Shown: piece after piece, positions 5,989 to 62,666 of the stretch
Layout: each line of letters begins with the position of its first letter
How positions within the stretch are numbered: the stretch's first letter is position 1
Assembly (NCBI GenBank): GCA_036170475.1
Contig: JAVHPE010000095.1
Coordinates: forward strand, 36,906-100,905
From: Bacteroidia bacterium
GTDB lineage: Bacteria > Bacteroidota > Bacteroidia > 2-12-FULL-35-15
DNA: 64,000 bases
Direction of reading: 5' to 3'
Position numbers and translations under genes: made by a program
Notes under the pieces: generated by a model
Told to the model about the DNA's origin: nothing
What the model saw: only the letters and a program-made list of their open reading frames with translations
Databases searched by the model: none

Positions 5989-6761
5989 TTAAGATACAGT
6001 TGTCCTGTCCCTTTTTTAGTTTCCTGAACTGTTACAGGATTTCCGTAACAATAAACATCACCAATATAATCGATCAGACATGTTAAATTAATTGTATTAA
6101 CAGTACATATACCGGTAGTGAAAGTATGAATCCTGGTAATATTAGTTTGTAAGTCCTGGCAATTTAAAAATGCAGTGCCTCCAATATCGCAATTGTGTTC
6201 AAATGTATAGCCGGATAAAGTTAAATCGCCTGAGCCATGCATGTGCGAGGTTACTTTTGAGTTATTCACGACTAATTCAATGTTCCCTGAATTTTTTGTT
6301 TGTACGTCAAACATATCAGTAGTAATCGTATTCAACCCTTTAATGTTGCCGGTTCCATTAGAAGTAATAAATTTTATTACCGGCATTTTAATATACACAT
6401 TTAAAGGTTTTTTATAACTACGAGTCCAGTTACAGCGGTTCTTATTTCTAATAAATAAAGTTCCATCCGTTACTACTGTTTCAACAAGTGGAACTATATT
6501 TTCTCCTGCTTCCACTTTTACTTCAAAGGTTGAATCCTGTGAAATAAACACGTTCAAATTATCTTCAACAAAAAACTTGTCAAAACCATTTATTGCGCGT
6601 GTTTCGGTTATAATCGTACCTGTTCTCTTAATACAATCACACCTGTTTTCTTTTTTGCAGGAAGAAACAAGAACAATTAACAAAAATGCTATACTGATTT
6701 TACTGTATTTTATTTTTTTCATTTTGGTACTATTTAAAAAAAAATATTGAAATTCTCCCAA
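5985..6761 (-). CDS. Lipoprotein, DUF2807/GIN-domain (putative auto-transporter adhesin head) family
   Basis: 258 aa. Lipobox LVSSC. Repetitive beta-solenoid-like sequence. Paralogous to the CDS at 41036..41782. Overlaps the upstream gene by 4 nt. Confidence 0.6.
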   Translation of the reverse strand: MGEFQYFFLNSTKMKKIKYSKISIAFLLIVLVSSCKKENRCDCIKRTGTIITETRAINGFDKFFVEDNLNVFISQDSTFEVKVEAGENIVPLVETVVTDGTLFIRNKNRCNWTRSYKKPLNVYIKMPVIKFITSNGTGNIKGLNTITTDMFDVQTKNSGNIELVVNNSKVTSHMHGSGDLTLSGYTFEHNCDIGGTAFLNCQDLQTNITRIHTFTTGICTVNTINLTCLIDYIGDVYCYGNPVTVQETKKGTGQLYLK

Positions 6762-6769
6762 ATAATATA

Positions 6770-6818
6770 CTCAATCTCAATCTCACATCTTATATCTCAT
6801 ATCTCATATCTCATATCT
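6770..6818. repeat. Heptanucleotide tandem repeat (CTCAAT x2 then ATCTCAT x3-4) in the promoter region of the DUF2807 lipoprotein gene
   Basis: Read directly: ctcaatctcaatctcacatcttatatctcatatctcatatctcatatct. Confidence 0.8.
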
Positions 6819-7926
6819 AAAACTGATACCCTAAGCCCCATTCAAAATAATCGGCTTTAGCCCAATGTGTAAGAAGTGTAAAATTTGCGATAAGGTGTTT
6901 TGTAACCAAATATCTTAACCCAACACGATGAAAAAATATTCCATTATAGGCTTGTTTTTTATACACATAAATACCAAAATCAACAGGCAACGAAAGTCTG
7001 TTCATATTAAAAGAATAACTAATTTTTACCCCGGACTGAGCAATATCGGTAATTTTATCCGTGACTATGGAATCATTTGCCCATACTTGTTTGGTAGCAT
7101 TGTTATACGCAATTTCAATACCACCACCTAATTTGTTTTTATAATTTAATGTTCGGTATAAATTTGCCTGAATTCCGTATGCAAAATATTCAGGCCCCCC
7201 TGGATTTTCAAGTTCTTTAATCCCAAAAACACCAATTACAGAAGGTTGCCAAATTTTTTTCGCGGGATAAATCGTATCCTTTTTGTATACGCAATTTTTA
7301 TTACCAAAAGCGTACCCTAAGCCCAAATTAACAGTAGCCATGTTTAAGCCTAAGTTGGGTGTACTCATTGCCGCATTAGAAGCGTGTGTTAAGCCAACAC
7401 CTGCATCCAATCTCCATCCTTTTGAAATCATTATAGCTGAACTCAACCGGAAGTTAACAAAGCCATTAAAATGAGAACCAATGACTCCATTTTGATGATT
7501 TTCGATTCTATCAAAATCCTTCGTTAGGTAGGCCAATCCAACTCCAATCCGAAAATTCAATCGGGCTTTCCGATAAAGTTTATTTAAACGAATATTTGTA
7601 TATGGGTAAAAAGCCTCCAGATTGCCCAGTTGTTGAGGATTCGCCAGATACATGTGCAAAAAGCAAACGCCAATTTCAGGATATTTGTGGATTTGCTGCC
7701 ATGTTTTAGTGCCATCCGTACGAAAAATATAATTTACCTCTGCGCCATAAATATGCCCCTTAATAACATTCGCCATATTATTTCGATGACTAATGATAAA
7801 ACCATAATGCCCTTGTCCGGATAGTAAAAAATCATGTCCCGGCATATTTTGAGCCATTGATGAAGCCGGCAATATCCATATAACTAACACTATTAATATC
7901 CTAAGCAGCTTACTCTGTTTAAACAT
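6817..7926 (-). CDS. Outer-membrane beta-barrel protein, acyloxyacyl hydrolase / PagL-like (lipid A deacylase family)
   Basis: 369 aa with a signal peptide. Contains the GVGLTHASNA (H-x-S-N) motif typical of PagL-family hydrolases. C-terminal aromatic residue (..GLGYQF). Confidence 0.5.
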   Translation of the reverse strand: MFKQSKLLRILIVLVIWILPASSMAQNMPGHDFLLSGQGHYGFIISHRNNMANVIKGHIYGAEVNYIFRTDGTKTWQQIHKYPEIGVCFLHMYLANPQQLGNLEAFYPYTNIRLNKLYRKARLNFRIGVGLAYLTKDFDRIENHQNGVIGSHFNGFVNFRLSSAIMISKGWRLDAGVGLTHASNAAMSTPNLGLNMATVNLGLGYAFGNKNCVYKKDTIYPAKKIWQPSVIGVFGIKELENPGGPEYFAYGIQANLYRTLNYKNKLGGGIEIAYNNATKQVWANDSIVTDKITDIAQSGVKISYSFNMNRLSLPVDFGIYVYKKQAYNGIFFHRVGLRYLVTKHLIANFTLLTHWAKADYFEWGLGYQF

Positions 7927-13791: not shown

Positions 13792-14976
13792 TTATTTCAG
13801 TCCAATTAATTCAACATCGAATGTTAATTCAGCCTTTTCAGGAATCATTGGTGGACGACCTTGTTCGCCATACGCCAAAAAATAAGGGATAATCAGGCGT
13901 AATTTATCACCAACATTCATCAATGCGATACCTTCATCCCAACCTGCAATAACCTGCCCTTTTCCCAATTCGAACTCAAAAGGTTCATTACGTTCAACGG
14001 AAGAATCAAACATTTTTCCATTAGCTAAATAGCCTGAATAATGCACTTCAACTTTTGTTCCGGCAGTAGCTTTTTTGTTGCTGTTGCTTTTAACTATTTC
14101 ATAATATTTTAACCCGGAAGGTGTTGTTTTCATTTCTTTCCCTGTAATATCAAAAAGTGCCGGAGCAATTATCGGCTGAACATCTAAAATTTCTATATCA
14201 AAAATTAAGTCCGAGTTAGGCGGAATAACAGGAGGATGCCCGGATTCACCATACCCTAATCTGGATGGGATATAAAATTTGAATTTATCTCCTTTGTGCA
14301 TTAGTGCAATACCTTCTTCTAAAGCTTTAATAAGTTGATCTGTTCCCATTTTTACTGTAAATGGTTGTCCGCGTTCTACTGAAGAATCAAATGGCAAACC
14401 ATCTTTAAAAAAGCCGCTGTAATGAAGCGTAACTTTTGTTCCCATTGCAGATTTTTCAGCCAACTTATTTTCTTTTATTATCCAATATTTTAATCCGCTG
14501 GTCATTGTAATTGTATCTTTTCCTTTTACATCCCAAGCAAGTGGATTTTCGACTAAATTCACTAATTCAACATCAAAAATAAGTGTTGAATTAGGAGGTA
14601 TTGGACCTGATTGATTATTACCGTAACCTAAGTCGGGACCAAATTTAATTGTTGCTTTATCTCCAACCTGTAGGAGTAGAAATGCTTCGTCCCAGCCTTT
14701 TACCACCTGACCTGTACCCAGTTTAAATGAAAATACTCCACCATGTTTGGAAGAACTATCAAAAACAGAATCATTTGTTAATTTTCCGATATATTTAACC
14801 ATTAATTTATCACCAATTTTGGGCTTCATACCATTTCCCTTTTCGGTAATGGTATATTCCAAACCAGAAGCTGTTTTAATAGTTTTAGGGTTAATTATTT
14901 TCTCGCTTTTTGCTTTTTCCTGCGCATTTACGCTTGTTGCAATAAATGCCAAAAGAATGATTGCAATTTTTTTCAT
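13792..14976 (-). CDS. FKBP-type peptidyl-prolyl isomerase with three tandem FKBP domains, secreted
   Basis: 394 aa with a signal peptide. Three repeats of the FKBP signature (DSS...G.PF.F.LG.GQVI.GWDE....M.VG.K..L.IP..L.YG). Confidence 0.85.
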   Translation of the reverse strand: MKKIAIILLAFIATSVNAQEKAKSEKIINPKTIKTASGLEYTITEKGNGMKPKIGDKLMVKYIGKLTNDSVFDSSSKHGGVFSFKLGTGQVVKGWDEAFLLLQVGDKATIKFGPDLGYGNNQSGPIPPNSTLIFDVELVNLVENPLAWDVKGKDTITMTSGLKYWIIKENKLAEKSAMGTKVTLHYSGFFKDGLPFDSSVERGQPFTVKMGTDQLIKALEEGIALMHKGDKFKFYIPSRLGYGESGHPPVIPPNSDLIFDIEILDVQPIIAPALFDITGKEMKTTPSGLKYYEIVKSNSNKKATAGTKVEVHYSGYLANGKMFDSSVERNEPFEFELGKGQVIAGWDEGIALMNVGDKLRLIIPYFLAYGEQGRPPMIPEKAELTFDVELIGLK

Positions 14977-15082
14977 AGTAAAAAAACTTTAGTATTTAAG
15001 CTAAGATTTCAAAGTGAGATACTAAATTTTATAAGCAATAAAGAGAGTTGCAAATCTATTATCTACAGTTTATTTAGTAATT

Positions 15083-16075
15083 CTATTGAGCAGGTGTAAA
15101 GCTTATTAATTCTACATCAAAAACCAATGTTGAGAAAGGAGGGATTGGTCCTGCACCTTGTTCTCCATATCCAATGGAAGAAGGAATAATTAATTGTCCT
15201 TTTGTACCAATACTCATCAGAGAAATGCCTTCATCCCAACCCGGGATAACTTTTCCTTCTCCCAAAGGAAATTCTATTGGTTGGTAAGGTCTTCTTTGAT
15301 CGAATACCCCTGCTAGTTTTGCAGCAGCTTCATCACTGGTATCAAAAACACTTCCATCTAACAAACGACCTGTATAATTTACTTTTACTTTACTTCCTTT
15401 TGTTGGTTTAGTTCCATTTCCGGGAGTTTTTTCAATATAGTACAAACCACTTAAAGTGGGTTTAACTGTAATTTTATTCTCCTCCAGATATTTAGCTAAT
15501 GTAGATGGTTCATTATTTTTAAGGCTTTCCATCATCGCTTTTTTCTCTTCCATTTTTTTAGTGTTTTCTTTCTCCGCTTCTTCCTTGGAAGTGATTTTTT
15601 CAAGTTTTACAACAAAATTCAACATGCTTTTTTTTTCAATAAAAGCGGGAACTTCTTTAGAACCAAAAGTTTTAAGAAAGAGAGAATCCGCATTAATCAA
15701 AAAGCTGGCACTATCTCCAGCCGACATCATAGATAAAGCATCTTCAAAACTTCCTTTGAATGTGGGTTTAGCCAAGGGGAATTCGATAAAGTCAGTTCCA
15801 TTCGGATTCTGTTTAGAATCAAATAATATTGAATCTTTGTTGGTTTTATACAACAATACTACTTTAACAACGTCGCTCTCTTTAGGTTTAACACCTTTCT
15901 CATTCTGTTTATAAAATTTAACATACAAGCCATTTTCAGTCTTTTTATAACCCGGATAAGAGGATTTTACAGTTTTTCCGGTAGTCGGGTTATTCCCTTT
16001 TAAACCTTTCCCATTTACCTGAGCATTCATCGTAATTGCTGATAATGCTAAAATAAGGATTGCTACTTTTTTCAT
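15083..16075 (-). CDS. FKBP-type peptidyl-prolyl isomerase (FkpA-like, N-terminal domain plus FKBP), secreted
   Basis: 330 aa. C-terminal FKBP domain (GRLLDGSVFDTS...IEFPLGEGKVIPGWDEGISLM). Tandem paralog of the next gene. Confidence 0.85.
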   Translation of the reverse strand: MKKVAILILALSAITMNAQVNGKGLKGNNPTTGKTVKSSYPGYKKTENGLYVKFYKQNEKGVKPKESDVVKVVLLYKTNKDSILFDSKQNPNGTDFIEFPLAKPTFKGSFEDALSMMSAGDSASFLINADSLFLKTFGSKEVPAFIEKKSMLNFVVKLEKITSKEEAEKENTKKMEEKKAMMESLKNNEPSTLAKYLEENKITVKPTLSGLYYIEKTPGNGTKPTKGSKVKVNYTGRLLDGSVFDTSDEAAAKLAGVFDQRRPYQPIEFPLGEGKVIPGWDEGISLMSIGTKGQLIIPSSIGYGEQGAGPIPPFSTLVFDVELISFTPAQ

Positions 16076-16101
16076 ATTGAATAAATTAGTATTGAGTTCC
16101 G

Positions 16102-17049
16102 TTAAAAACTTATTAATTCAACATCAAAAACCAATGGTGAAAAAGGAGGAATAGGACCTGCACCTTGCTCTCCATATCCTATAGAGGAAGGAATAATTAA
16201 TTGCGCTTTTGCGCCTGCACTCATTAAAGAAATACCCTCATCCCAACCTGGAATAACCTGCCCTTGCCCTAAAGGAAAATCAATTGGTGTATAAGTTCTT
16301 TCTTTATTATAGATACCTGCTTGTTTTGCAACTGCTTCATCACTGGTATCAAAAACACTTCCATCCAATAAGCGTCCTGTATAATTTACTTTTACCTTAC
16401 TTCCTTTAGTTGGTTTAGATCCTTTCCCTTTTGTTTTTTCGATATAATATAATCCGCTTGCAGTAGGTTTTGCAGTAATTTTATTAGTTTCTAAATATTT
16501 TGCAAAAGCTTTAGGTTCTTCATTTTTACGAAGTTCGATCATAGCTTTTTGCTCTTCCATTTTCTGACTGCGTTCTTTGTCTGCCACTTCCTTTGGTGTA
16601 ATTTTTTCAAGTTTTACTTCAAAATTTAGCATCGTTCCTTTTTGGATATAAGGAGGAAGAGTTTTAGTTCTGAAAGTTTTCAGATAAACGGAATCAGCAC
16701 TGATCATAAAGCTGGCGCTATCACCAACAGACATCATTGCCAATGCATCTTCGAAACTACCTTTAAATGTTGATTTACCTAAAGGGAACTCAATAAAATT
16801 AGTACCATTCGGGTTCTTGTTTTTTGAATCAAATAAAACAGAATCTTTGCTGTTTTTATATGCCAAAGATAATTTAACAATATCGCCTTCTTTAGGTTTA
16901 ACTCCCTTTGACTCCTGTTTAAAAAACTTAGCATATACACCGGTTTCGGTCTTTTCATAACCGGCGTATGGTGATTTATTACATGCAGTAACTACTAATA
17001 CAGCGCCAATAGCTGCAAACGCGACTTTTTTAGAAAATTGTTTTTTCAT
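16102..17049 (-). CDS. FKBP-type peptidyl-prolyl isomerase (FkpA-like), tandem duplicate of 15083..16075
   Basis: 315 aa. Collinear and highly similar to the upstream paralog along its full length. Confidence 0.85.
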   Translation of the reverse strand: MKKQFSKKVAFAAIGAVLVVTACNKSPYAGYEKTETGVYAKFFKQESKGVKPKEGDIVKLSLAYKNSKDSVLFDSKNKNPNGTNFIEFPLGKSTFKGSFEDALAMMSVGDSASFMISADSVYLKTFRTKTLPPYIQKGTMLNFEVKLEKITPKEVADKERSQKMEEQKAMIELRKNEEPKAFAKYLETNKITAKPTASGLYYIEKTKGKGSKPTKGSKVKVNYTGRLLDGSVFDTSDEAVAKQAGIYNKERTYTPIDFPLGQGQVIPGWDEGISLMSAGAKAQLIIPSSIGYGEQGAGPIPPFSPLVFDVELISF

Positions 17050-17121
17050 TTTATTTTTGTGAATTTTATTTTTGTGACATTTATTACTAATAAATTTTTT
17101 TCAAGGTGCAAATATAGTATA

Positions 17122-17209
17122 GATTTGAGAATTGAGATGTGAGATTTGAGAAAAAACATTCTTTAATATGGAAAGCTATTTCACATTTCCCATCTCATAT
17201 CTCATATCT
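17122..17209. repeat. Inverted arrays of the same heptamer family (ATTTGAG-type on the left, ATCTCAT on the right) flanking a 40-nt spacer, upstream of an FKBP gene
   Basis: gatttgagaattgagatgtgagatttgag ...40 nt... catctcatatctcatatct. Confidence 0.75.
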
Positions 17210-17470
17210 AACATGTATCTATTTGTTATACACAAGGCGTAAGGAAAAAAGGAAAGAACCCTATAATAAACGGACAAAGCAGACAGAAAAGTGCAATTCA
17301 ATCCGACACACCCCGACCACGCAAAAAGAAAATTTTGTTTTTTTTGCCAACGCACTTTTAAAAACAAGTGACTTTCCCCGCACACCGTCACTCATTTCTG
17401 TTAACTTTGTCACAGTCGCATTTCATAGTAAGAAAAAAAAGAAACGCCCTGGTGCCTAACATCACCTAAG

Positions 17471-17633
17471 TTACATGGCCGTTTATAGTAAGTTTCATCA
17501 TTTGAGTTCGCAATGAAAATAGGGCGTGGCAAAAACCTTTCACAGCGGTAGAAATTTTTAACTATTAGTTTTTGCCACTTGTAATTTTATAATTATTTTT
17601 ACGAAAGCGGCAACAGCCGCTTATTTTGCCGTT
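17471..17633 (+). repeat. Dispersed ~150-nt structured repeat, copy A (contains an 11-bp-stem hairpin gtggcaaaaac..gtttttgccac and a terminator-like hairpin aagcggcaacagccgctt + T-run)
   Basis: About 88% identical to 62047-62196. Overlaps the 3' end of the FKBP gene 17565..18524. Confidence 0.8.
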
Positions 17634-18524
17634 ATGTTTTGTTAAATTCAATAATTCTATTTCGTAAATAACAGTTGTGTATGCAGGAACAATATTGGTT
17701 GAAGAGCCTGTTTCGCCATAAGCAAGGCATGAAGGAATAATAAATTTTGTTTTTGCCCCTTCATTCATTAATCTTATTGCTGTGTTAAAACCTTTAATTA
17801 CCTGTCCTTCCTCGCCAAAATTAAATTCCAAAGGTTCCGCGCGTTCATAAGTAGATTCAAATTGCTTTCCATTTAAAAAATAGCCTTTGTAATGTATTTT
17901 TATCATATCTCCACTCTCCACGTAATCACCGGTACCTTGTTTTATTGGCAAATAATACATGCCATTATCCAGACGGTAAAATTGAGTTTGGTTGGTATCC
18001 AGATAAATCTGAAGCTTGCGTGATTCTTCAATATCGCGGTCTTCAATAATTACATGGTATTTTTCCAATTCGTCAATATATTCTTCTCTGGTTAAAATGC
18101 GATTTAATTTTATATCCATTTTAACAGCAGTTCCCCGATTTAAAAAAAGCGGGAGTTCTGTTTTAAAAAATTCTTTAAAGAGAGAATCAGCATTGACAAT
18201 AAAGGATACACTATCTCCTGCATTCATTTTGGTTAAGCCTTCTTCAAAGCTTCCTACAAAGGAGGATCGATTAAAAGGCAAAATAACCATTCCTGTTTCG
18301 TTACAAGAATAGGTGTCAAAAAAAACAGAATCTTTTAATGTTTTATAGGTAATTTTAAGTTGCAAAAAGTTACCGGGGGAAGGTTTACTCTTCCCGTCAC
18401 CAATCGTTTGTAACTTATAATATAGTCCTGAAGCAGTTTGAGTGTAGCCTTTAAAGGGTGAATTATCCCAACATGAACTTAAGATTGAAGAAATAAATAA
18501 GACAACGGTAACCTTGATATTCAT
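17565..18524 (-). CDS. FKBP-type peptidyl-prolyl isomerase with a C-terminal tail derived from a repeat element
   Basis: 319 aa. The FKBP domain ends at ..VIYEIELLN. The last ~25 aa (TKHNGKISGCCRFRKNNYKITSGKN) are encoded by the dispersed repeat at 17471-17633. Confidence 0.75.
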   Translation of the reverse strand: MNIKVTVVLFISSILSSCWDNSPFKGYTQTASGLYYKLQTIGDGKSKPSPGNFLQLKITYKTLKDSVFFDTYSCNETGMVILPFNRSSFVGSFEEGLTKMNAGDSVSFIVNADSLFKEFFKTELPLFLNRGTAVKMDIKLNRILTREEYIDELEKYHVIIEDRDIEESRKLQIYLDTNQTQFYRLDNGMYYLPIKQGTGDYVESGDMIKIHYKGYFLNGKQFESTYERAEPLEFNFGEEGQVIKGFNTAIRLMNEGAKTKFIIPSCLAYGETGSSTNIVPAYTTVIYEIELLNLTKHNGKISGCCRFRKNNYKITSGKN

Positions 18525-18551
18525 AAACTATTTTAGAAATAATTAGGCAAT

Positions 18552-19076
18552 TTAACGAATAGATAATAATTCAATATCATAAACTACAGAAGATTTTGGA
18601 GGTATTTTGCTATCGTCACCCATTAATCCATGCGCTAAATAGGATGGTAAAATAAAAATCGCTTTATCCCCCACATGAAGGAGTTGAATTCCCTCATGCA
18701 AGCCGCTTTCTACATTATCCTGTCCAATCAAAAAAACCTTAGCCCCTGTTGAATCAGATGAATAGCAAAGTGTTCCATCAAGCAGACTTATTTTATAATT
18801 TACTTTAGCATGTTTATCGGGCAAAGCGGGAGCACCCGTTCCTTTTTTTGTTATTATATAACGTAACCCTGTTCCTGTAGTAGTCATTTTCCAGCCACGA
18901 TGGGCAATATATTGATCAATTTCATCACTTTCCTGCCGAACGTACATTTTATTGGCATTAATCAATTTGTCCTGAAATTCTTTGCCTTGTATATTTGTAT
19001 TCTTCGTTGTTTTTTTATGCCCGTCGCTACAGGATTGAAATACAGAAACGAAAAGTAAAAAGCAAAAGAAGCTCAT
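18552..19076 (-). CDS. FKBP-type peptidyl-prolyl isomerase lipoprotein (GldI-like)
   Basis: FKBP signature (LLDGT...GLHEGIQLLHVGDKAIFILPSYLAHG). Lipobox VFQSC after an internal Met. The ORF could extend to 19166. Confidence 0.7.
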   Translation of the reverse strand: MSFFCFLLFVSVFQSCSDGHKKTTKNTNIQGKEFQDKLINANKMYVRQESDEIDQYIAHRGWKMTTTGTGLRYIITKKGTGAPALPDKHAKVNYKISLLDGTLCYSSDSTGAKVFLIGQDNVESGLHEGIQLLHVGDKAIFILPSYLAHGLMGDDSKIPPKSSVVYDIELLSIR

Positions 19077-19162
19077 CTCAAAGCCTCTTACCTTAATCCC
19101 CTCTCCAAAAGAAAAGGAAAATAAAGTGAGTTGGTTCCTGCCAGCTTTAACTTTCCCCTTTT

Positions 19163-20248
19163 TCATTTATCTTTTTCATTTTTAATGCTTAGTTTCCTCT
19201 GTTTATGGGAGGTTGGGATAGACTTCGGCTGGGATGGGCTACTCAGTTCTTTTTTATACTGAGGTAACAATGAAACGAATTTAATAATGGTTTCATCCAA
19301 CGATAAATCACTCATACCTCCCGCAGCGTTTGCATGTCCGCCACCATTAAAATGTTTGCGTGAAAAAAGATTCACATTAAAATTACCTTGCGACCGAAAG
19401 GATGTTTTTATTTCATCATCACGTTCCACAAAAAAGGCGGAAAAACGAATTCCTTCAATGGAAAGAGCATAATTGACAATACCTTCAGTATCTCCCTTTT
19501 TATAATTAAAATGGGTCAATTCATCATTTCGTAAACTAAAAAAAGCTGTTCCATATTCTTTTAAAATAGTCAATTTCTCCGCCAGACAAAAGCCTAATAA
19601 TCTCAGTTTATCTTCAGTATTGTCATCATAAATACGATTATGAATTGCGGCATTTTCTGCTCCCGCTTCAATCAATTCCGCGATTATTTTGTGTGTTTTC
19701 GCGGTAGTGGATGGGAAACGGAAAGAACCGGTATCTGTCATTATTCCAGTATATAAACAATTTGAAATGTTTTTATTAATAACTTTTTTATCATTCATTA
19801 GCTCAATGAAATCAAATACAAGTTCGCAGGTGGAGCATGCTTTTATATTGTGAAGCATGTAATCTGCAAAGTCCTCTGGTTGTAGGTGATGGTCGATGAT
19901 ACATTTTACCCCCTTAGCTTTTTCTACTTCCTCGCCCAATGCATCAATCCGTTTGAGTGAATTAAAATCCAGACAAAAAATAATATTCGCTTTTGCAACG
20001 GCTGTTTTAGCCTCCTTAGTTTTGTCAGAAAAGTTAATTACCTTTTTATTGCCGGGCAGCCAAAAAAGGAAGGAGGGATAATCATTTGGCGTAATAACTG
20101 TTACTTTATGTTTTTTAATGGTTAAATAGTTATATAAACCAAGGGAAGCCCCCATGGCATCACCGTCAGGCGACCAATGTGTAACAATTACTATGTTTTT
20201 AGACTTACTTAAAAGCTCTTTTATTTCTTTAACTTGATTTGCGTTCAA
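19163..20248 (-). CDS. nrnA: DHH-family phosphoesterase, NrnA-like (bifunctional oligoribonuclease / pAp phosphatase)
   Basis: Contains DHH (THWSPDGDAMGASLGL) and DHHA1 (NGGGHANAAGG) motifs. The ORF is open to 20533 (456 aa), but the first ~95 aa are hydrophobic junk. The conserved N-terminus (..NQVKEIKELLSKSKNIVIVTH) suggests a TTG start near 20248. Confidence 0.8.
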   Translation of the reverse strand: MNANQVKEIKELLSKSKNIVIVTHWSPDGDAMGASLGLYNYLTIKKHKVTVITPNDYPSFLFWLPGNKKVINFSDKTKEAKTAVAKANIIFCLDFNSLKRIDALGEEVEKAKGVKCIIDHHLQPEDFADYMLHNIKACSTCELVFDFIELMNDKKVINKNISNCLYTGIMTDTGSFRFPSTTAKTHKIIAELIEAGAENAAIHNRIYDDNTEDKLRLLGFCLAEKLTILKEYGTAFFSLRNDELTHFNYKKGDTEGIVNYALSIEGIRFSAFFVERDDEIKTSFRSQGNFNVNLFSRKHFNGGGHANAAGGMSDLSLDETIIKFVSLLPQYKKELSSPSQPKSIPTSHKQRKLSIKNEKDK

Positions 20249-27767: not shown

Positions 27768-30700
27768 ATGAAATCAAAAACTACTTTGTTCAAAATTTTT
27801 ATTATTTGTTTTTTTGCACTTGTTTTTTCTAAAACAAATGCAAGTACTTTTACAGTGATTAATACTTTGGATGCAGGTTCCGGATCATTGCGTCAGGCAA
27901 TTACTTCCGCAGGAACTAATCCTTATGATGCTGATAATATTATATTTAATATTCCTACATCCGATCCAAATTACAATGCTTCAACGGGTGTTTTTACCAT
28001 ATCTCCTGCATCTTTACTTCCTACTGTTAATAGTATTTCTGTATCTATAGATGGTACAACACAGCCGGGAAATACAAATCCAAATGGTCCTGAAATATGC
28101 ATTAAAAGTACCGCTAATCTGTCCTATGCTTTGTGTTTCCCATTTTCCGGATGTAGTGTAAAAGGCTTGATAATAAATGGATTTCAATATGGTGTTATTC
28201 TTACAAAGTATGGTACTTTTCCAAGTGGGTCTTGTACGGTTGCAAATTGTTATATTGGAGTAAATTACGATGGTAGCGCCGCACTTTCTAATGATATTGG
28301 AATTGTACTATATGGGGATGTTGCAACTAATACAATAAAGGACAATCTTATTTCTGGAAATACTACGGCAGGTATTGGTGTTAGGAAATCAAATGGCAAT
28401 GTTATCCAAGGAAATAAAATAGGGTGTGATAGAACAGGAATGTATGCTATTCCTAATTACTACGGTGTGGCTATTGATTCATCAGCAAATAACACTGTTG
28501 GCGGAAATACAGCGTTACAACGAAATATTATTTCAGGAAATTTATCTGCCGGAGTTGCCATTAATACAAATGTTTCACATGATAATACTGTCAAAGGAAA
28601 TTATATAGGTATCAATATTAATGGTATTGCCAGAACTGATACCATTCCAAATTTCTATGGTATTGCTATCAATGATTCCTACAATAATATTATTGGGGGT
28701 GCTTCGGCAGCGGAAAGAAATATCATTTCTGGTAATAGTGATGGTGGAATTTCCATTTTAGGTCCAAACGCTAAAAACATGACTATCAAAGGAAACTACA
28801 TTGGAACAAATATTTCCGGAACTGATTCTATACCAAACGCGAATGGAATTTTATTAAGCGGAACTTCCGGAAATACCATTGGCGGAAGCAATACAGGTGA
28901 GGGTAATTTAATTTCCGGAAATAAATCAGCAGGAATCGCCTTGGCATATTCAGGAACAAGATTAAATACAATAATTGGAAATTATATCGGAACAGATTTT
29001 CAAGGGACTCAGATATTGAGTAATTATACAGGAATTTATTTAAAGAGCAATGCCAATAAAAACACCATTGGTGGTTCTACTCCGGGTGAACGGAATATTA
29101 TTTCAGGAAATATTGAAATGGCATTATGTATTGAATCGTCTGACAGTAATACGGTAAAAGGAAATTATATTGGTCCTGATGTAACAGGCATGAATGCTTT
29201 AAAATTGTCGAATGATACGCTTGTTCAAGCCAATGGCTTATATTTTAATTCAAATTCAAAATACAATACTGCCGGTGGATACGGTGCAGGAGAAGGAAAT
29301 GTAATTTCCGGAAACAGGATATATGGTCATGATTATTATGGTAACTCTTCCTATAATCCCACTATTGGGAATTATATTGGTGTGGATGCAACCGGTAATA
29401 ACCCAATGCCCAACGCAACAGGTATTTGTATGGATGGGGGTTCTAATCATAATCCTATCATTAATAATGTTCTTTCAGGTAACCGTGCTTACGGAATATT
29501 TATTGTTACCACAGGCACCGATTACAATGTCCTTAACGGAAATAAAATTGGGACTAATGCAGCAGGAACTGATTCAGTACCAAATCAAATTGGCTTAATC
29601 CTTGGGGGAGGAACAAAACACAATACTATTGGGGGAACAACGACAGCAGATAGGAATATTATTTCGGGTAACAGATTTGATGGAATTGAAGTAGCTGATA
29701 CATATACTTCTTTAAATGATATTATAGGAAATTATATCGGGACAGACATCAGCGGAACCCTTGCATTGCCTAATTATAATGGTATTGGTTTCGCAAGTAG
29801 CCCAAGTAAAAATAATATTGAAAATAATGTGATCAGTGGAAATAGCTACTGCGGACTTATTCTTTATGAACAATGCGACAGCAATACTGTTTACAGCAAT
29901 AAGATTGGTGTTTCTATGGATGGAACTACGATTTTGAAAAATAATACCGCGGGAATAGTTATTGCAAAAGGCTCGAAATATAATATAATTGGTGCTTTGA
30001 ACAAAGGGAATATTATCGCAAATCATGATTCCATTGGTATTGCTGTTATTGATACAGGAACAGTGTTCAATACAATTTCCGCAAATCAGATTTATGGTAA
30101 TGGAATAATGGGAATTGATCTTTATCCTTATGGTGTTAATAATAACGATGTTTCAGATAATGATATCGGTTCCAATGAACTGATGAATTACCCTGTGATT
30201 CAAAATGTTTACCTTGATTGGTCAAGCGGAATCGCAACCATTACCGGAACGATGGATTGTGCAACATACAGTGGTCCTGATGGAATTAAAATTGAACTCT
30301 TTAAATCCAACGGAACCAATATGTTTAATCACGGGGATGCGACTGCCTTTCTTGGAGATACAGTAGTAGTAGGTAGTTCCGGAAACTGGAGTTTTAATTG
30401 TACAGGGTTAACTTCAAGTGATATGGTAACTGCTACGGCAACTGATGTTAAAGGGAATACCTCAGAATTTGCACAGAACATAGGTATCACGGTAAGTGTG
30501 AATGAAAATAATTCCGGTAATGAATACTCTGTTTATCCTAATCCAGCAAGTGACCAATTGAAAATTTCATTTTATTCATTGTCTGAAAAGAATGTCGAGA
30601 TTAATCTTTTTTCAATTACAGGAGAACTTGTTAAGATTATTGAGAACAAAAAATTTAGCATAGGTAAAGTTGAATTGAATTATGATATTTCCGAACTTCA

Positions 30701-30782
30701 TCTTAATAAAGGTTTGTATTTCCTTGCTATTACAGAAGAAGGAAGGGCAGTCAAAACGTCTAAAATTATTATTACTAACTAA
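27768..30782 (+). CDS. Right-handed parallel beta-helix repeat protein with CSLREA-like N-terminal motif and T9SS C-terminal sorting domain
   Basis: 1004 aa with a signal peptide. N-terminal GSGSLRQAIT motif. About 20 tandem ~22-aa PbH1-like repeats (GNYIG.D..G.....N..GI). C-terminal SVYPNPASDQLKISF.. T9SS CTD. Confidence 0.8.
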   Translation: MKSKTTLFKIFIICFFALVFSKTNASTFTVINTLDAGSGSLRQAITSAGTNPYDADNIIFNIPTSDPNYNASTGVFTISPASLLPTVNSISVSIDGTTQPGNTNPNGPEICIKSTANLSYALCFPFSGCSVKGLIINGFQYGVILTKYGTFPSGSCTVANCYIGVNYDGSAALSNDIGIVLYGDVATNTIKDNLISGNTTAGIGVRKSNGNVIQGNKIGCDRTGMYAIPNYYGVAIDSSANNTVGGNTALQRNIISGNLSAGVAINTNVSHDNTVKGNYIGININGIARTDTIPNFYGIAINDSYNNIIGGASAAERNIISGNSDGGISILGPNAKNMTIKGNYIGTNISGTDSIPNANGILLSGTSGNTIGGSNTGEGNLISGNKSAGIALAYSGTRLNTIIGNYIGTDFQGTQILSNYTGIYLKSNANKNTIGGSTPGERNIISGNIEMALCIESSDSNTVKGNYIGPDVTGMNALKLSNDTLVQANGLYFNSNSKYNTAGGYGAGEGNVISGNRIYGHDYYGNSSYNPTIGNYIGVDATGNNPMPNATGICMDGGSNHNPIINNVLSGNRAYGIFIVTTGTDYNVLNGNKIGTNAAGTDSVPNQIGLILGGGTKHNTIGGTTTADRNIISGNRFDGIEVADTYTSLNDIIGNYIGTDISGTLALPNYNGIGFASSPSKNNIENNVISGNSYCGLILYEQCDSNTVYSNKIGVSMDGTTILKNNTAGIVIAKGSKYNIIGALNKGNIIANHDSIGIAVIDTGTVFNTISANQIYGNGIMGIDLYPYGVNNNDVSDNDIGSNELMNYPVIQNVYLDWSSGIATITGTMDCATYSGPDGIKIELFKSNGTNMFNHGDATAFLGDTVVVGSSGNWSFNCTGLTSSDMVTATATDVKGNTSEFAQNIGITVSVNENNSGNEYSVYPNPASDQLKISFYSLSEKNVEINLFSITGELVKIIENKKFSIGKVELNYDISELHLNKGLYFLAITEEGRAVKTSKIIITN

Positions 30783-30828
30783 TCAAATCCCGACAGGTTT
30801 TTATAATCTGTCAGGATTAAACACTATT

Positions 30829-32880
30829 ATGACAAACAAATACTCCTTTTCCCTTTTCCTTATTTTAATTGTTGTTAATATTTCAAATGCCACTGTTTAT
30901 ACGGTAACAAATACAAACAATTCAGGAGCCGGTTCATTACGACAAGCAATTACCGATGTGAATATATACCCCGGTACACATACCATTTCATTTAATATTC
31001 CTACTACAGATCCAAATTATATTTCCTCACAAGGGGTATGGAAAATCACTCCAACAGCCACATTGCCAATTATTACGAGGAACAATGTATTGATTGATGG
31101 AACTACACAAACTACTAATCAGGGAGATACGAATCCTCTCGGACCTGAAATATTGATTGATGGTAATAATTTGTACGTTTCTGATTTTGCTTTTCATTTA
31201 TATAATGTTTCCGGGGCAACCATCAAAGGTTTTATCATTGGACGATTTACGGTTGGCATAGAGATTTCAGGCACAAGCCACGACAATATTATTGCAGAGA
31301 ATTATGTTGGTTGCAATTATAATGCTACCGACACTTTGAGTAATACGCATGGCATCGAATTATTGAGTGGTCCATACCACAATACCATTGGGGGATCCTC
31401 CATAAGCGATAGAAATATTTTTTCAGGAAATAATCATGTTGGAATTCGCGTAGTAAATTCTAACAGCAATATTATTAAAGGAAATTATGTTGGGCTCAAC
31501 CGCACTGGTGATGGCGCTGTTAGAAACTTTGATGGGATCAGTATTGAGGGAACATCAAAATACAATTTGATTGGCGGTTATACTTCCGCTGAAAGAAATT
31601 ATGTTTCCGGTAATGATGCCTATGGAATTCCGGTGTTTGGTACAGGGTGCAGTTACAATATTATCGTTGGAAATTATGTGGGGACAGATATTACAGGTAC
31701 CGATTCAATTCCTAACACTTACGGAGTTTTATTTGATGATGGTGCAAGTTATAACCGTCTGGGCGGACAACATGCAGGAGCCGGCAATTTATTGTCGGGC
31801 AATTCCGGTTATGGAGTTTTTCTTTATAATCCGGGAACACAAAAAGATACTGTTATTGGAAATCTTATTGGGACTGATGTTTCGGGTACATTGCCCTTGG
31901 CAAATTCAATTGGTATAGTAATAGACGGACCCTCTTATAAACATTATATCGACAGCAATGTGGTTTCAGCAAATCGCCAAAATGGTATTATTATTCATCT
32001 TAGTGGAAGCGATAGCAATATGGTGGTTAGGAATAAAATCGGAACAGATATTACCGGAACTCAGGCTCTCGGAAATGTATTTGACGGAATCAGAATAGGC
32101 GAAGGTCCACAGCATAATATAATAGGCAAACCGGGCAAAGGTAATATCATTGCCAATAATGGTGGTAATGGAATTACGGTTATGACCCCTGCGGAATTGT
32201 ATAATATTTTTACTGAAAATTCCATTTATAATAATGCAGGACTCGGCATTGACCTTTGGCCAGCGGGACCAACAAGTAATGATATAGGAGATGCGGACAC
32301 AGGACCAAATGATTTGATGAATTTTCCGGTGATTCAGAATTTGAATCTGAATACTTCCAACGGAGTTACAACTATCTCCGGAATTATTGATTATACAGTA
32401 TTTGGCGGAGCAAACGGAATAAAAATAGAATTGTTCAAATCGGATAATGATGCATCAGGCTATGGAGAAGGGAAAGAATTCATTGGCTCCGTTTTAGCTG
32501 ATGCTGCCGGCAATTGGGCATTTAGTTGTTCCTGCCTTACAGGCTCTGATATTGTTACTTCTACTGCTACCGACTTATTGGGGAACACTTCTGAGTTTTC
32601 TTTAAATGGCAGTATTACCGTAGGACTGGATGATATAACGAATGATAATGTGGTGCTATATCCCAATCCTGCCAATTCAGTTTTAACAGTTAAATTTTTA
32701 AACAGTAAGTTTCAAAATACGGATTATAAAATTATAAATATATTTGGAGAGCTTGTTTTGAAAGGAAATTTAAAAGAAAGTGAAAATAATATCGATATAA
32801 ACATCTTATCCAAAGGTATTTATTATTTGCAAATACAAAGTAAAGTTAATGTGGTAATCAGAAAAATTATAAAGGAATAA
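30829..32880 (+). CDS. Right-handed parallel beta-helix repeat protein, paralog of 27768..30782, with T9SS C-terminal sorting domain
   Basis: Same architecture as the upstream paralog: GAGSLRQAIT, PbH1-like repeats and VLYPNPANSVLTVKF CTD. The ORF is open from 30682, but the signal peptide starts at Met 30829. Confidence 0.8.
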   Translation: MTNKYSFSLFLILIVVNISNATVYTVTNTNNSGAGSLRQAITDVNIYPGTHTISFNIPTTDPNYISSQGVWKITPTATLPIITRNNVLIDGTTQTTNQGDTNPLGPEILIDGNNLYVSDFAFHLYNVSGATIKGFIIGRFTVGIEISGTSHDNIIAENYVGCNYNATDTLSNTHGIELLSGPYHNTIGGSSISDRNIFSGNNHVGIRVVNSNSNIIKGNYVGLNRTGDGAVRNFDGISIEGTSKYNLIGGYTSAERNYVSGNDAYGIPVFGTGCSYNIIVGNYVGTDITGTDSIPNTYGVLFDDGASYNRLGGQHAGAGNLLSGNSGYGVFLYNPGTQKDTVIGNLIGTDVSGTLPLANSIGIVIDGPSYKHYIDSNVVSANRQNGIIIHLSGSDSNMVVRNKIGTDITGTQALGNVFDGIRIGEGPQHNIIGKPGKGNIIANNGGNGITVMTPAELYNIFTENSIYNNAGLGIDLWPAGPTSNDIGDADTGPNDLMNFPVIQNLNLNTSNGVTTISGIIDYTVFGGANGIKIELFKSDNDASGYGEGKEFIGSVLADAAGNWAFSCSCLTGSDIVTSTATDLLGNTSEFSLNGSITVGLDDITNDNVVLYPNPANSVLTVKFLNSKFQNTDYKIINIFGELVLKGNLKESENNIDINILSKGIYYLQIQSKVNVVIRKIIKE

Positions 32881-37803: not shown

Positions 37804-37966
37804 CTACCCTGGCAGGGTTTCAAACCCTGTAAGGGCTTATGGTCCAATATAAATTACGATTCCAATTAAATTACATAATTTTATTTTACTCCAAACAGCT
37901 TTGAATTACACTTTTATCCAAATGCCTAAACCCCTGACAGGGTTTGAAACCCTGTCAGGGGATAGT
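37804..37966. mobile_element. MITE-like element: two related perfect palindromes (core CAGGGTTTnAAACCCTG) forming ~30-bp terminal inverted repeats around an AT-rich ~95-nt core. It fills the intergenic gap inside the SMC-like operon.
   Basis: ctaccctggcagggtttcaaaccctgtaaggg ... cccctgacagggtttgaaaccctgtcagggg. Confidence 0.55.
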
Positions 37967-41791: not shown

Positions 41792-42589
41792 TTACTTTAG
41801 CTCAACTTTTACCAAATAACTTCCCGCATTTTGCGCATTATAAACTTCTTCATAGATTGAAAGATATAATATTCCAGTATCATTAGAGATTCCTGAATAC
41901 TTTTCTCCTGCTCTTGTCATAACTCCATGTTCAGCAATTTTAAAAACTACATTTCCGTAGGTTGGATACGTGTAATTGTTTGTTGCGGAATCATCCACAG
42001 AAAGGGGAGCATAATCATAGGAAGAAGCGGTTGTAGATGTTCCTCCCACAGTTTTACCATCAGGAGTATATTTTGCACCTGATAAACTTGCAAGGACTAC
42101 TTGTCCATTTGCGGAAATAGAAAGTTTTTGTCCCTTTTTAACCATAATTCCTGTGTTTAACCATCCACCGGCAGTATTGCTACTAATATGTTTTGATCCA
42201 ATAAGTTTAAAAGCTGTTTGTCCGTCCGCAGTATTAAATATCTCTATACTTTCCATCTTTTCACCAGGAATAGTCAAGACACCATATTCTGTTTTTATTT
42301 CCAATGATTTAATATTTGTCTGACCGGCAATATTGTAGGTATAATTAATTTCAACAACATCAACTGTTTTTACGGTTTCTCCATCTTCCTGTTTTACTCC
42401 CATTTTTATACTTGATACATCCTTAACAGGAATATCCAGTTTCCCGTAATCAGTAATCAGATTTATTTTTGATAATGAGGCAGCGCCTAAAACGATATTA
42501 CCATCCTTTAAAATAATACGAAGTTGTACCTGAGAAAACAACAAGGGGGAAAGAAGGATTAAAAATCCGGTTAAACTTTTTCTGAGCAT
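41792..42589 (-). CDS. Secreted hypothetical protein
   Basis: 265 aa with a signal peptide (FLILLSPLLFSQ). An (ATGA)n SSR lies 18-63 nt upstream of its start. Confidence 0.5.
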   Translation of the reverse strand: MLRKSLTGFLILLSPLLFSQVQLRIILKDGNIVLGAASLSKINLITDYGKLDIPVKDVSSIKMGVKQEDGETVKTVDVVEINYTYNIAGQTNIKSLEIKTEYGVLTIPGEKMESIEIFNTADGQTAFKLIGSKHISSNTAGGWLNTGIMVKKGQKLSISANGQVVLASLSGAKYTPDGKTVGGTSTTASSYDYAPLSVDDSATNNYTYPTYGNVVFKIAEHGVMTRAGEKYSGISNDTGILYLSIYEEVYNAQNAGSYLVKVELK

Positions 42590-42606
42590 TAGCTTATGTT
42601 TTATTT

Positions 42607-42652
42607 ATGAATGAATGAATGAATGAATGAATGAATGAATGAATGAATGAAT
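42607..42652. repeat. (ATGA)~11 tetranucleotide microsatellite, 18-63 nt upstream of the start codon of the secreted-protein gene 41792..42589
   Basis: atgaatgaatgaatga... read directly. Confidence 0.9.
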
Positions 42653-42772
42653 AAATAAATGTTTGTTCGAACAAATTAAAACTAAAGAATGAAACCAGTC
42701 ACGCTAAAAATTAAATTCGGTAGTAAAAATATGAATAAGTTATTACCTTGAGAATTTTTTTTCAGACAGACA

Positions 42773-61043: not shown

Positions 61044-61067
61044 TGCAACAGTCGCTTATTTTGCCGT
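61044..61067 (+). repeat. Partial copy (3' end) of the dispersed repeat
   Basis: gcaacagtcgcttattttgccgtt matches the 3' part of copies A and B. Confidence 0.5.
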
Positions 61068-61161
61068 TGGCGGTAATTGTAAAAAAAACCGCTTCCCGAA
61101 AATGTTTCCATTTATTGCAACTTTTGTTGTATCTTTGTAGGGAAACTTTATATGAAACAAT

Positions 61162-61500
61162 ATGACACCTAAGTTTAATGTTTTGTTTATGGAAGATGTG
61201 CGTGAATTCCTTGCGTGGGTTGACCAAAAATCTAAAGACAAAATTATTTACAATATCGACCGTGCCAAATTGCATAACGACCGAGAGTTATTCAAAAAAT
61301 TGAAAGGCGAAATTTGGGAATTTAGAACCCTTTATAACAAGACCTATTACAGACTCTTTGCTTTTTGGGATAAATCGGACAAATCTGAAACATTAGTTAT
61401 TTCAACTCATGGAATAATTAAAAAAACAGATAAAGTTCCCGAGAAAGAAATTGAAAAAGCGGAATTATTAAGACAAAAATATTTTAAACTTAAAAAATAA
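61162..61500 (+). CDS. Type II toxin, RelE/ParE superfamily (HigB-like / Gp49-like)
   Basis: 112 aa. Toxin-first arrangement, directly followed 5 nt later by an HTH-XRE protein. Confidence 0.65.
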   Translation: MTPKFNVLFMEDVREFLAWVDQKSKDKIIYNIDRAKLHNDRELFKKLKGEIWEFRTLYNKTYYRLFAFWDKSDKSETLVISTHGIIKKTDKVPEKEIEKAELLRQKYFKLKK

Positions 61501-61505
61501 TTATT

Positions 61506-61835
61506 ATGGCAACCGTGAGTAAAATGAAGCTATACACGTTAGAAGACATTAAAGATGAGTTCATCGGGAAACGTGGGACAGTTAAACGTGACCAGTACGA
61601 ACAAGAATTGCAACTTGAAGTATTAGGCGACATGATTAAACAAGTTAGACTTGAACGTAATTTAACACAGGAACAACTTGGAAAATTAATTGGAGTGCAA
61701 AAGGCTCAAATTTCTAAATTGGAGAACAGTGCGACCAATGTCACAATGGAGACTATTTTGCGTGTATTTAATGCTTTAAAAGCTAAAGTAAGTTTTAGGG
61801 TGGAATTAAAAAATCATCAAATTCAAATTGCTTAA
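61506..61835 (+). CDS. HTH XRE-family antitoxin (HigA-like)
   Basis: 109 aa. HTH_3 motif LTQEQLGKLIGVQKAQISKLEN. Confidence 0.7.
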   Translation: MATVSKMKLYTLEDIKDEFIGKRGTVKRDQYEQELQLEVLGDMIKQVRLERNLTQEQLGKLIGVQKAQISKLENSATNVTMETILRVFNALKAKVSFRVELKNHQIQIA

Positions 61836-61840
61836 AGAAA

Positions 61841-62033
61841 CTACGGAGAGTTACGGATATTTACGGACTGTGGCGTAGAAAAAAACGCAACGTAAAGAAC
61901 GGACATTTACGGAGAATAACGGGTATTTGCGAACTGTAACGCAGAAAAATGCAACTCAAAACACGGACATTTACGGAGAATAACGGATATTTACGGACTG
62001 TAACGTGGAAAGAAAAAGAAACAACTAACCGCC
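61841..62033. repeat. Three tandem ~64-nt direct repeats rich in TTACGGA/ACGGA words (iteron-like)
   Basis: The unit tacggagaataacgg(a/g)tattt(a/g)cg(g/a)actgtaacg + an A-rich ~20 nt tail occurs 3 times. Confidence 0.8.
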
Positions 62034-62046
62034 AACATTAAATATG

Positions 62047-62196
62047 CTATATGGCCGTTCATAGTAAGCTTCATCATTTGAGTCCGCAATTGAAATAGGT
62101 CGTGGCAAAAACCTTTCACAGAGGCAGAAATTTTTATCTATTAGTTTTTGCCACTTTTAATTTTACAATTTTTTTTACGAATCGGCAACATCGCTT
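62047..62196 (+). repeat. Dispersed ~150-nt structured repeat, copy B
   Basis: Same element, same orientation. Lies between the 64-nt tandem repeats and the IS3 transposase fragment. Confidence 0.8.
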
Positions 62197-62279
62197 CAGA
62201 CCATAACGGTTAGACCTGTGTTTGCTGACTTGTAGACAATTACGCAGAAAAATAATCCGACCCTTTAAAAGCATTAGAG

Positions 62280-62666
62280 ATGGCAATTAAGTCGCGAAAA
62301 TATACAAATCGAAAACTTATACATCATTCAGACAGAGGTTTGCAGTACTGCGATGGGGATTATATCGCAGTTTTAAAACACAATAAAATTAGTCCTAGTA
62401 TGACCGAAGTATACGACCCATACGAAAACGCAATAGCAGAGCGGGTAAACGGAATACTTAAAGACGAATTCGACATTGGAGAAGGTTTTATAAATCATAT
62501 ACAAGCTGTAAAGGAAATAAAAGAAGCTATAGAAACATATAATTCTTTTCGCCCCCATTTAAGCTGTGAAATGATGACACCTGTTGATGCGCATACATTT
62601 GGTAAGTTTAAAATGAAAAAATGGGGAGGACGAAAGAAGTACAACAAAAAATTAATATACCTTTGA
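62280..62666 (+). pseudogene. IS3-family transposase fragment (C-terminal part of the rve integrase core only)
   Basis: Contains HSDRGLQY...NAIAERVNGILKDE...FRPHLSCEMMTPVDAH, i.e. the DDE-domain C-terminus. The frame closes ~50 nt upstream, so there is no N-terminal half and no orfA. Confidence 0.6.

Follow-up and report, generated by a model that had tools for sequence, protein, structure and literature searches.

A dispersed 176-nt repeat of uncultured Bacteroidota with the features of an integron attC site

Integron attC sites are imperfect palindromes, the bottom strand of which folds into a hairpin and is cut by the integrase in AAC (G|TT on the top strand). A gene cassette opens with TT plus the 3' R-box half, and closes with the remainder of its own attC; the two spacers measure 5 and 6 nt in sites of the attC-aadA7 type. 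Integrons, CALINs, SALINs and insertion at attG sites are already established. The attC sites of mobile integrons are 57-70 bp long and VCR2 133 bp (PMC5027507), a typical length from which the repeat described here departs. Insertion by the integrase at genomic GWT sites (attG), from which SALINs result, is documented (10.1101/2022.09.11.507474). Salinibacter ruber M1 carries the only complete integron found among Bacteroidetes complete genomes in the IntegronFinder 2.0 survey (10.1101/2022.02.28.482270).

The repeat is present in two copies, A and B, in the 64,000-nt stretch of DNA analyzed (hereafter the window). Both are very probably attC recombination sites of integron-type gene cassettes. 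The assignment is made because of the AAC/GTT anatomy, the spacers, the covarying L box, the G:T pairs of the bottom strand, the common orientation of the cassettes, and the exchange of flanks between neighbours. Points that weigh against it are the negative integrase search in the DNA covered, the long core with a branched terminus in place of a plain stem-loop, the loose fit of the flanks to the extended consensus, extrahelical bases that could not be assigned, the size of some segments between sites, and the poor pairing in cassette A. The element is filed as the attC-type site of orphan or solitary cassettes, and a complete integron is not claimed. Unusual here are the length, branching and high conservation of the attC family, and a well-documented natural insertion altering a host protein.

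Repeat family and fold

As stated in the initial annotation, the two copies are 88% identical and have the same orientation: the repeat finder groups them as one family at this value, and nhmmer retrieves copy A over the full model (E = 3e-52) and copy B with E = 4e-44. The ranges first assigned to them are real, but start 13 nt too far right by the profile of the wider family; the 24-nt partial copy is real too, being the 3' end of a copy, but lies one base away from its first location (see Table 1). The 64-kb window holds just these two family copies, 44.6 kb apart. The search for further copies proposed at the outset found at least 66 by BLASTN and nhmmer, 59 in 40 genome loci and 7 in 5 metagenome loci, a number far beyond chance. 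Identity within the family is 77-95%, and the core measures 173-179 nt, or ~205 nt with the extended R stem. The pattern of the central hairpin, scanned once over ~185,000 species genomes, gave 99 loci, 40 of which hold true copies. The metagenome scan used a pattern made from the element ends only, without the hairpin, and the 5 loci obtained all retain the hairpin; since copies bearing it were also recovered in this way, its conservation is not an artefact of the first search.

The copies occur in a few assemblies of uncultured Bacteroidota. Most are in the fragmented MAG 'uncultured Bacteroidetes Kiruna_bin-08168' (CAISYK01), often at contig ends; others are in Kiruna_bin-09443, in JAURXZ01, a MAG of Bacteroidia, and in a small number of further assemblies. 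In several sequencing runs (L107-L110, Logan assemblies SRR254905xx), the contigs of the organism from which the window comes all terminate inside attC copy B or shortly ahead of it; the repeat disrupts short-read assembly, which explains the interruptions at this sequence in assemblies of these organisms. Copy A has no blastn match in plasmid and phage collections, and none was found in a pattern scan of viral contigs. No tRNA genes were found, and the idea of a tRNA-linked att site was dropped. Rfam 15 gives no match over the whole window at gathering score, and nothing usable for the locus at E <= 10. A crude scan of the window for attC geometry returned 6 candidates, against 0-5 (mostly 3-5) in shuffled sequences, so no extra sites above expectation.

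Other repeats of the window are of different kinds. Two inverted palindromic units of 32 nt (CCCTGNCAGGGTTTCAAACCCTGTNAGGG; 37807-37838 and 37929-37960), 90 nt apart, lie between two minus-strand genes, and may represent terminator- or hairpin-like elements or else a small mobile element. A run of (ATGA)n, ~15 units long (42599-42666), just downstream of the 3' end of gene 41792..42589(-), may be prone to slippage. Two adjacent large genes (27768-32880), which encode beta-helix proteins (NosD/Beta_helix) with T9SS C-terminal sorting domains, are the source of the many families of 50-nt direct repeats listed by the repeat finder.

The core of the repeat is bounded by AAC and GTT, both triplets being invariant in 48 of 48 aligned copies, and sequences beyond them vary from copy to copy. 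Inward from the 5' end, the consensus reads AAC, a 5-nt spacer (ATCAC), CTAAGT, and the stem TGGCCG; the 3' arm reads CGGCCA, ACTTAG, a 6-nt spacer (CTAATC), and GTT. Three internal hairpins form the terminal structure. The central one, GTGGCAAAAAC-(31 nt)-GTTTTTGCCAC, had been noted in both window copies; it is indeed there, and is near-invariant in the family (47-48 of 48 aligned copies per position).

The long-range stem is recovered both by RNAalifold and by pair counts, with standard pairs in 98.2% of cells. Covariation, named in the initial annotation as a thing to look for, was found: the L-box stem has 14 pairs, 10 of them with compensatory changes; the pairing values were not matched in any of 500 column shuffles, and no slid register came near. 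The alignment folds better as bottom strand (-63.8 kcal/mol) than as top strand (-52.6 kcal/mol), canonical pairs being 98.2% on the former and 89.8% on the latter, and invariant T.G pairs are valid on the bottom strand only (A.C on the top). A bias towards the bottom strand is also what has been published for attC sites (PMC5027507). Taken alone, copy A has only a modest folding advantage over shuffles (z = -1.9 and -2.5).

The consensus L box is a clean 6-bp stem to which no bulged base can be assigned; asymmetry resides in the spacers (5 vs. 6 nt) and in a 4x4 internal loop. The R box pairs over ~14-16 bp, position 8 being constantly T.G on the bottom strand. With RYYYAAC/GTTRRRY the flanks agree only loosely: 100% of copies have Y at -1 and R at +1, but the fit is 67-69% at positions -4 to -2, and 58%, 50% and 34% at positions +2, +3 and +4.

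A GC-rich, terminator-like stem had been attributed to each full copy. The aagcggc/gccgctt stem followed by tattttg is found in copy A only, copy B having aatcggcaacatcgcttcag, which is unable to form it. Across the family the GC-rich segment pairs long-range with the 5' end of the element, and the stem is therefore not a family-wide terminator.

Array pattern of the cassettes

All copies are co-oriented in 16 of the 17 contigs containing two or more. Neighbouring ORFs are mostly on the same strand, and copies follow accessory ORFs of their own strand. When adjacent copies are compared, the 7 nt behind GTT of the first are a perfect reverse complement of the 7 nt that precede AAC in its downstream neighbour in 12 of 16 pairs. 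When flanks are compared all against all, 4% of the pairs match at 7/7, and the two flanks of one copy match each other no better than random. Over 10 nt, the 12 matching pairs agree at 9 positions, the constant mismatch at position 8 being usually T.G on the bottom strand. The predicted cassette start (GTT plus the reverse complement of the left 7 nt) is found upstream of 31 of 53 copies, vs. 1.8 expected from shuffled probes. The integrase cleaves the AAC triplet of the folded bottom strand, so that R-box sequence lying 3' of GTT moves along with the following cassette (PMC5027507); exchanged flanks between copies n and n+1 are what this predicts, and are the signature of integron cassettes.

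Orphan cassette starts adjoin other attC-like sites of ~57, 76 and 127 nt, the 57-nt site being located in L019. Four sequence families, the 176-nt family and three sisters, share the geometry AAC-5 nt-L''...L'-6 nt-GTT. Five co-oriented sites are packed into 3.1 kb of contig L079.

Cassette ORFs encode an HTH_3 antitoxin, ParE toxins, T9SS-secreted, TPR and collagen-like proteins, and many products without Pfam match. These contents fit chromosomal integrons, in which toxin-antitoxin is the commonest identifiable cassette function (10.1101/2024.07.02.601686). Some segments between attC sites are 2-5 kb long and contain several genes; whether the 7-kb segment of L005 is a single cassette is uncertain, as it may contain sites that escaped detection.

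Tandem arrays of 56-64-nt units with a shared motif, TACGCAGAAAAA, are found inside cassettes, usually between ORF and attC. They occur in the window (61842-62005 and 62196-62257), at L039:1706-2195, and in L102, L095, L019, L031, L070 and L083. The L039 array is made up by 8 units of 60 nt; the window has 2.5 units plus one stray unit, and its units show a ~10-nt sub-period, TACGGA. To our knowledge, such arrays are not usual in integron cassettes.

Table 1. Features of the window around the two copies of the repeat, and attC-like sites of the sister families in other loci, named according to the attC reading
Feature	Position	Strand	Description
Cassette A	17226..17631	+	406-bp ORF-less gene cassette (TT...G), inserted in the FKBP 3' end; absent from L100/L101
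Left junction GTTAT	17225..17229	+	genomic secondary-site G plus cassette start TTAT...
Start module of cassette A	17226..17367	+	non-coding; 142 nt 92% identical to L005:97-239, behind a family-2 attC-like site
End module of cassette A	17385..17457	+	A-rich tract plus variable R'' flank ...CGCCCTGGTGCCT
attC copy A	17458..17633	+	core AAC...GTT, 176 nt; R'' AAC, spacer ATCAC, L'' CTAAGT, stem TGGCCG
attC copy A, 3' part	within 17458..17633	+	three-hairpin terminal structure, L' GCTTAT, spacer TTTGCC, R' GTT
Central hairpin	17526..17578	.	inside the variable terminal structure; present in both window copies
FKBP-type isomerase ORF	17565..18524	-	residues 1-298 native; 299-319 (17568-17630) and stop (17565-17567) from the attC A bottom strand
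Right junction GTTAT	17631..17635	+	attC R' G plus genomic TTAT...
attC 3' remnant	61045..61068	+	...GCAACAGTCGCTTATTTTGCC GTT; L' GCTTAT, spacer TTTGCC, R' GTT; marks the start of cassette B
Cassette B, toxin-antitoxin	61067..62196	+	start GTT|GGCGGT = reverse complement of ACCGCC|AAC before copy B (6/7)
Gp49/HigB-like gene	61162-61500		cassette B; Pfam
HTH_3/HigA-like gene	61506-61835		cassette B; Pfam
64-nt tandem repeats	61842-62005		cassette B; upstream of R'' flank and attC copy B
attC copy B	62034..62196	+	3'-truncated: model positions 1-165 of 176; L' and R' missing; ends ...cgctt
One 60-nt repeat unit	62196..62257	+	replaces the end of copy B; 100% over 58 nt to L039:1706-2195 units
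IS3-family transposase fragment	62280..62666	+	C-terminal rve domains only (Pfam rve_3, rve, rve_2); upstream in-frame stops
attC-like families of ~127, 76 and 57 nt, part 1	L005:1-99, L039:2230-2351, L079 (3 copies), L061:3862-3981, L031, L030, L102
attC-like families of ~127, 76 and 57 nt, part 2	L008:755-826, L039:355-426; L019 (~6690-6750 locus coordinates)

The two cassettes of the window

The orthologous loci L100 and L101 have the same gene order as the window and FKBP genes 81% and 88% identical to the window gene. In both the target TTTGTTATG is intact, the empty site reading ...AAAAC ATAAC AATTAG... on the gene strand without the 406 bp. The window has ATAAC (GTTAT on the plus strand) at both insertion junctions, the left one being ...CTATTT GTTAT ACACAAGGCGTAAGG..., the right one ...TTTTGCC GTTAT GTTTTGTTAAATTC.... 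Excision of the 406-bp insert in silico restores the FKBP end ...ELLNLTKHNK*.

The initial annotation had noted that the FKBP ORF reads into copy A, and this holds, the Pfam FKBP_C domain ending at residue 292 of 319. Its view that the last ~25 codons stem from the element is right as to origin but not as to length: the insertion swaps K-stop for 21 residues (GKISGCCRFRKNNYKITSGKN), two adjacent cysteines among them, read from the attC bottom strand. When C-termini are compared, 14 FKBP orthologues all lack the tail, and end ...LTKHNN* or ...LTKYNK*. Exact-protein look-ups found the window FKBP genes not to be on record.

Cassette A would have arrived by recombination between attC and a genomic site (attG), and would now be a solitary cassette, or SALIN. 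Insertion at GTT within the last FKBP codons is the step by which lysine and stop would have given way to the residues encoded by the attC bottom strand. The target, TTT GTT ATG, fits the GWT preference. The features of a SALIN are all found: a single attC, no integrase or second att site nearby, a genomic GWT, and a junction that is precise when compared with the empty site.

No credible ORF was found in cassette A outside attC. The start of the cassette, GTT|ATACACAAGGCGTAAGGAAAAA, also follows an attC in L090. Its end module (~70 nt) is ~80% identical to L005:7078-7149 and L061:7210-7296, each located immediately ahead of its own attC. Since its start and end modules both match L005, cassette A appears to derive from a larger cassette by internal deletion. 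The start of cassette A (ATACACA) pairs with its own R'' flank (GGTGCCT) at only 4 of 7 positions, and the L box has one mismatch; the cassette may have lost its mobility.

Five tandem genes for FKBP-type isomerases, two of which are 74-82% identical in DNA, occupy the minus strand of the window from 13792 to 19166; the order DHH-FKBP-FKBP-FKBP-FKBP is kept in the relative L100. Heptamer microsatellites (ATCTCAT / AAATCTC and complement) are found in intergenic regions at 6766-6833, 17121-17217 and 46585-46624, and the one adjoining FKBP is at the same place in L101.

Cassette B lies downstream of rlmB. The attC remnant at its start is identical to the 3' end of the L008 copy, and flanks match between 61069-61074 and 62028-62033. 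A HigBA pair 66% identical to that of cassette B resides between two attC sites in L031; exact look-up of HigB returned the same locus only. Copy B closes the HigB/HigA-like cassette, its 3' end having later been lost beside the 60-nt unit and the IS3 fragment. The location of copy B between tandem repeats and an IS3 transposase fragment had been noted correctly. The idea that the sequence after copy B is an IS3 inverted repeat was rejected, this sequence being a unit of the 60-nt tandem repeat.

The relatives L115, L116 and L117 do not have cassette B after rlmB; as close relatives carry other genes directly there, the region is a variable spot. Homology with them stops at the rlmB stop codon, and no exact junction can be drawn for an empty site. 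The IS3 fragment is followed by a gene for a RhuM-family 'virulence' protein (63163-64000, running off the window end; Pfam E = 5e-94), which, along with the toxin-antitoxin cassette, marks the region as a small variable island.

Excision of either window cassette is now improbable, because cassette A pairs poorly, both between start and R'' and in the L box, and cassette B lacks R'. The two copies were also considered as attL and attR of one 44-kb element; this was rejected, the copies being only 88% identical, separated by housekeeping genes, and each closing its own small cassette.

Recombinase, alternative readings, and comparison with known systems

When the window was searched by tblastn with IntI1 (an approximate query sequence), together with 99 genome loci and 5 metagenome loci (~650 kb), only matches with E > 1 were obtained; the weak one in L105 sits in a gene neighbourhood of the restriction-modification type. 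Adjacent intI, attI and Pc, as in a complete integron, were found neither in the window nor in the fetched loci. The window elements are taken as solitary, or orphan, cassettes because there is no IntI-like match in this DNA. The recombinase would be an IntI-type integrase, either encoded elsewhere or formerly present.

Integron-like cassettes might instead be moved by a non-canonical recombinase, such as a tyrosine or serine enzyme specific to Bacteroidota or one of Xer type, acting on folded or double-stranded AAC/GTT sites. The result of the IntI search speaks for this, as do the great rarity of complete integrons in Bacteroidetes complete genomes (a single case in the survey 10.1101/2022.02.28.482270) and the unusual length of the attC, with its conserved branched terminal structure. 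Yet AAC/GTT, the 5/6-nt spacers, the L box, the bottom-strand bias, the crossover and the insertion at a secondary GTT site all fit an IntI substrate, and integrons in Bacteroidota are reported from metagenome-scale surveys (PMC8618304, PMC9668308). Moreover, the search covered only short stretches on either side of the repeats, and an intI present once per genome would easily escape it. We consider a non-canonical enzyme unlikely. Taken in a broader form, which also admits a second function for the three-hairpin structure and the GTGGCAAAAAC hairpin, as a binding platform for a lineage-specific accessory protein or an insulator from antisense transcription, the idea has a small chance of being right. 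If true, it would point to a distinct, convergent or deeply diverged branch of cassette capture, in a phylum nearly devoid of integrons.

The initial annotation had offered a MITE or mobile-element terminus, or a small RNA gene; we retain the terminus of a mobile unit, and neither the MITE nor the RNA gene. That the element is primarily a structured RNA (an sRNA, 3'-UTR or terminator module copied around the genome) is in keeping with the significant covariation, the highly conserved hairpins, the A-rich and T-rich tracts beside the closing stem, and the location of copies downstream of co-oriented genes. It is nevertheless very unlikely: G:T(U) pairs favour the strand antisense to the adjacent cassette genes, copy A by itself folds only modestly better than shuffles, and no Rfam family is reached at gathering score (the best, IS128, scores 21 bits vs. 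a cut-off of 80). Nor does an RNA module predict the complementarity of flanks between copies n and n+1, the shared geometry of the 57-127-nt sisters, or precise insertion bounded by GTT. A MITE or other non-autonomous transposon, with GTTAT at both FKBP junctions as target-site duplication, would suit the dispersed, multi-copy repeat and the IS3 fragment adjoining copy B, but is hardly tenable given that the 406-bp insert (start ACACAAGG..., end ...TTTTGCC) has no terminal inverted repeats and carries the repeat at one end only, that co-orientation in 16/17 contigs and tandem cassettes exchanging flanks are not transposon behaviour, that the shared GTTAT is the recombination core of attC itself, and that an unrelated 60-nt unit separates the IS3 fragment from copy B.

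The attC reading points to a lineage of Bacteroidia in which large cassette arrays draw on four attC-like families, along with relatives in which single cassettes are scattered. The FKBP locus provides a clear natural instance of a cassette inserted outside an integron, by the attG route and with its empty site; it shows that insertions of the attG type can give a housekeeping protein a different end. Annotators should note that the 21-residue FKBP tail, like several small 'ORFs' here, is a by-product of the recombination site.

The VCRs of the sedentary chromosomal integron of V. cholerae are likewise long, species-specific, mutually similar and co-oriented attC sites; they fold on the bottom strand, and separate toxin-antitoxin cassettes and others of mostly unknown function. 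The sites described here differ in being 176 nt long with a branched three-hairpin terminus, whereas VCRs form one long imperfect stem; the host belongs to the Bacteroidia, the arrays mix in three other attC-like families, and no integrase was located. Sites of the attC-aadA7 type (57-70 bp) feature the same order, R'' (..AAC), a ~5-nt spacer, L'', terminus, L', a ~6-nt spacer, and R' (GTT..). The 176-nt family is three times longer, lacks recognisable extrahelical bases, and extends the pairing of the R box to ~14-16 bp. S. ruber M1 indicates that integrons exist in the phylum, although in a different class (it is a Rhodothermia-like halophile). SALINs formed at attG sites (Loot et al., bioRxiv 10.1101/2022.09.11.507474) share with cassette A the single attC, the precise GTT and the crossover expected of IntI; unlike those, cassette A is a natural case that can be compared with its empty site, has no ORF, and has rewritten the C-terminus of a host protein.
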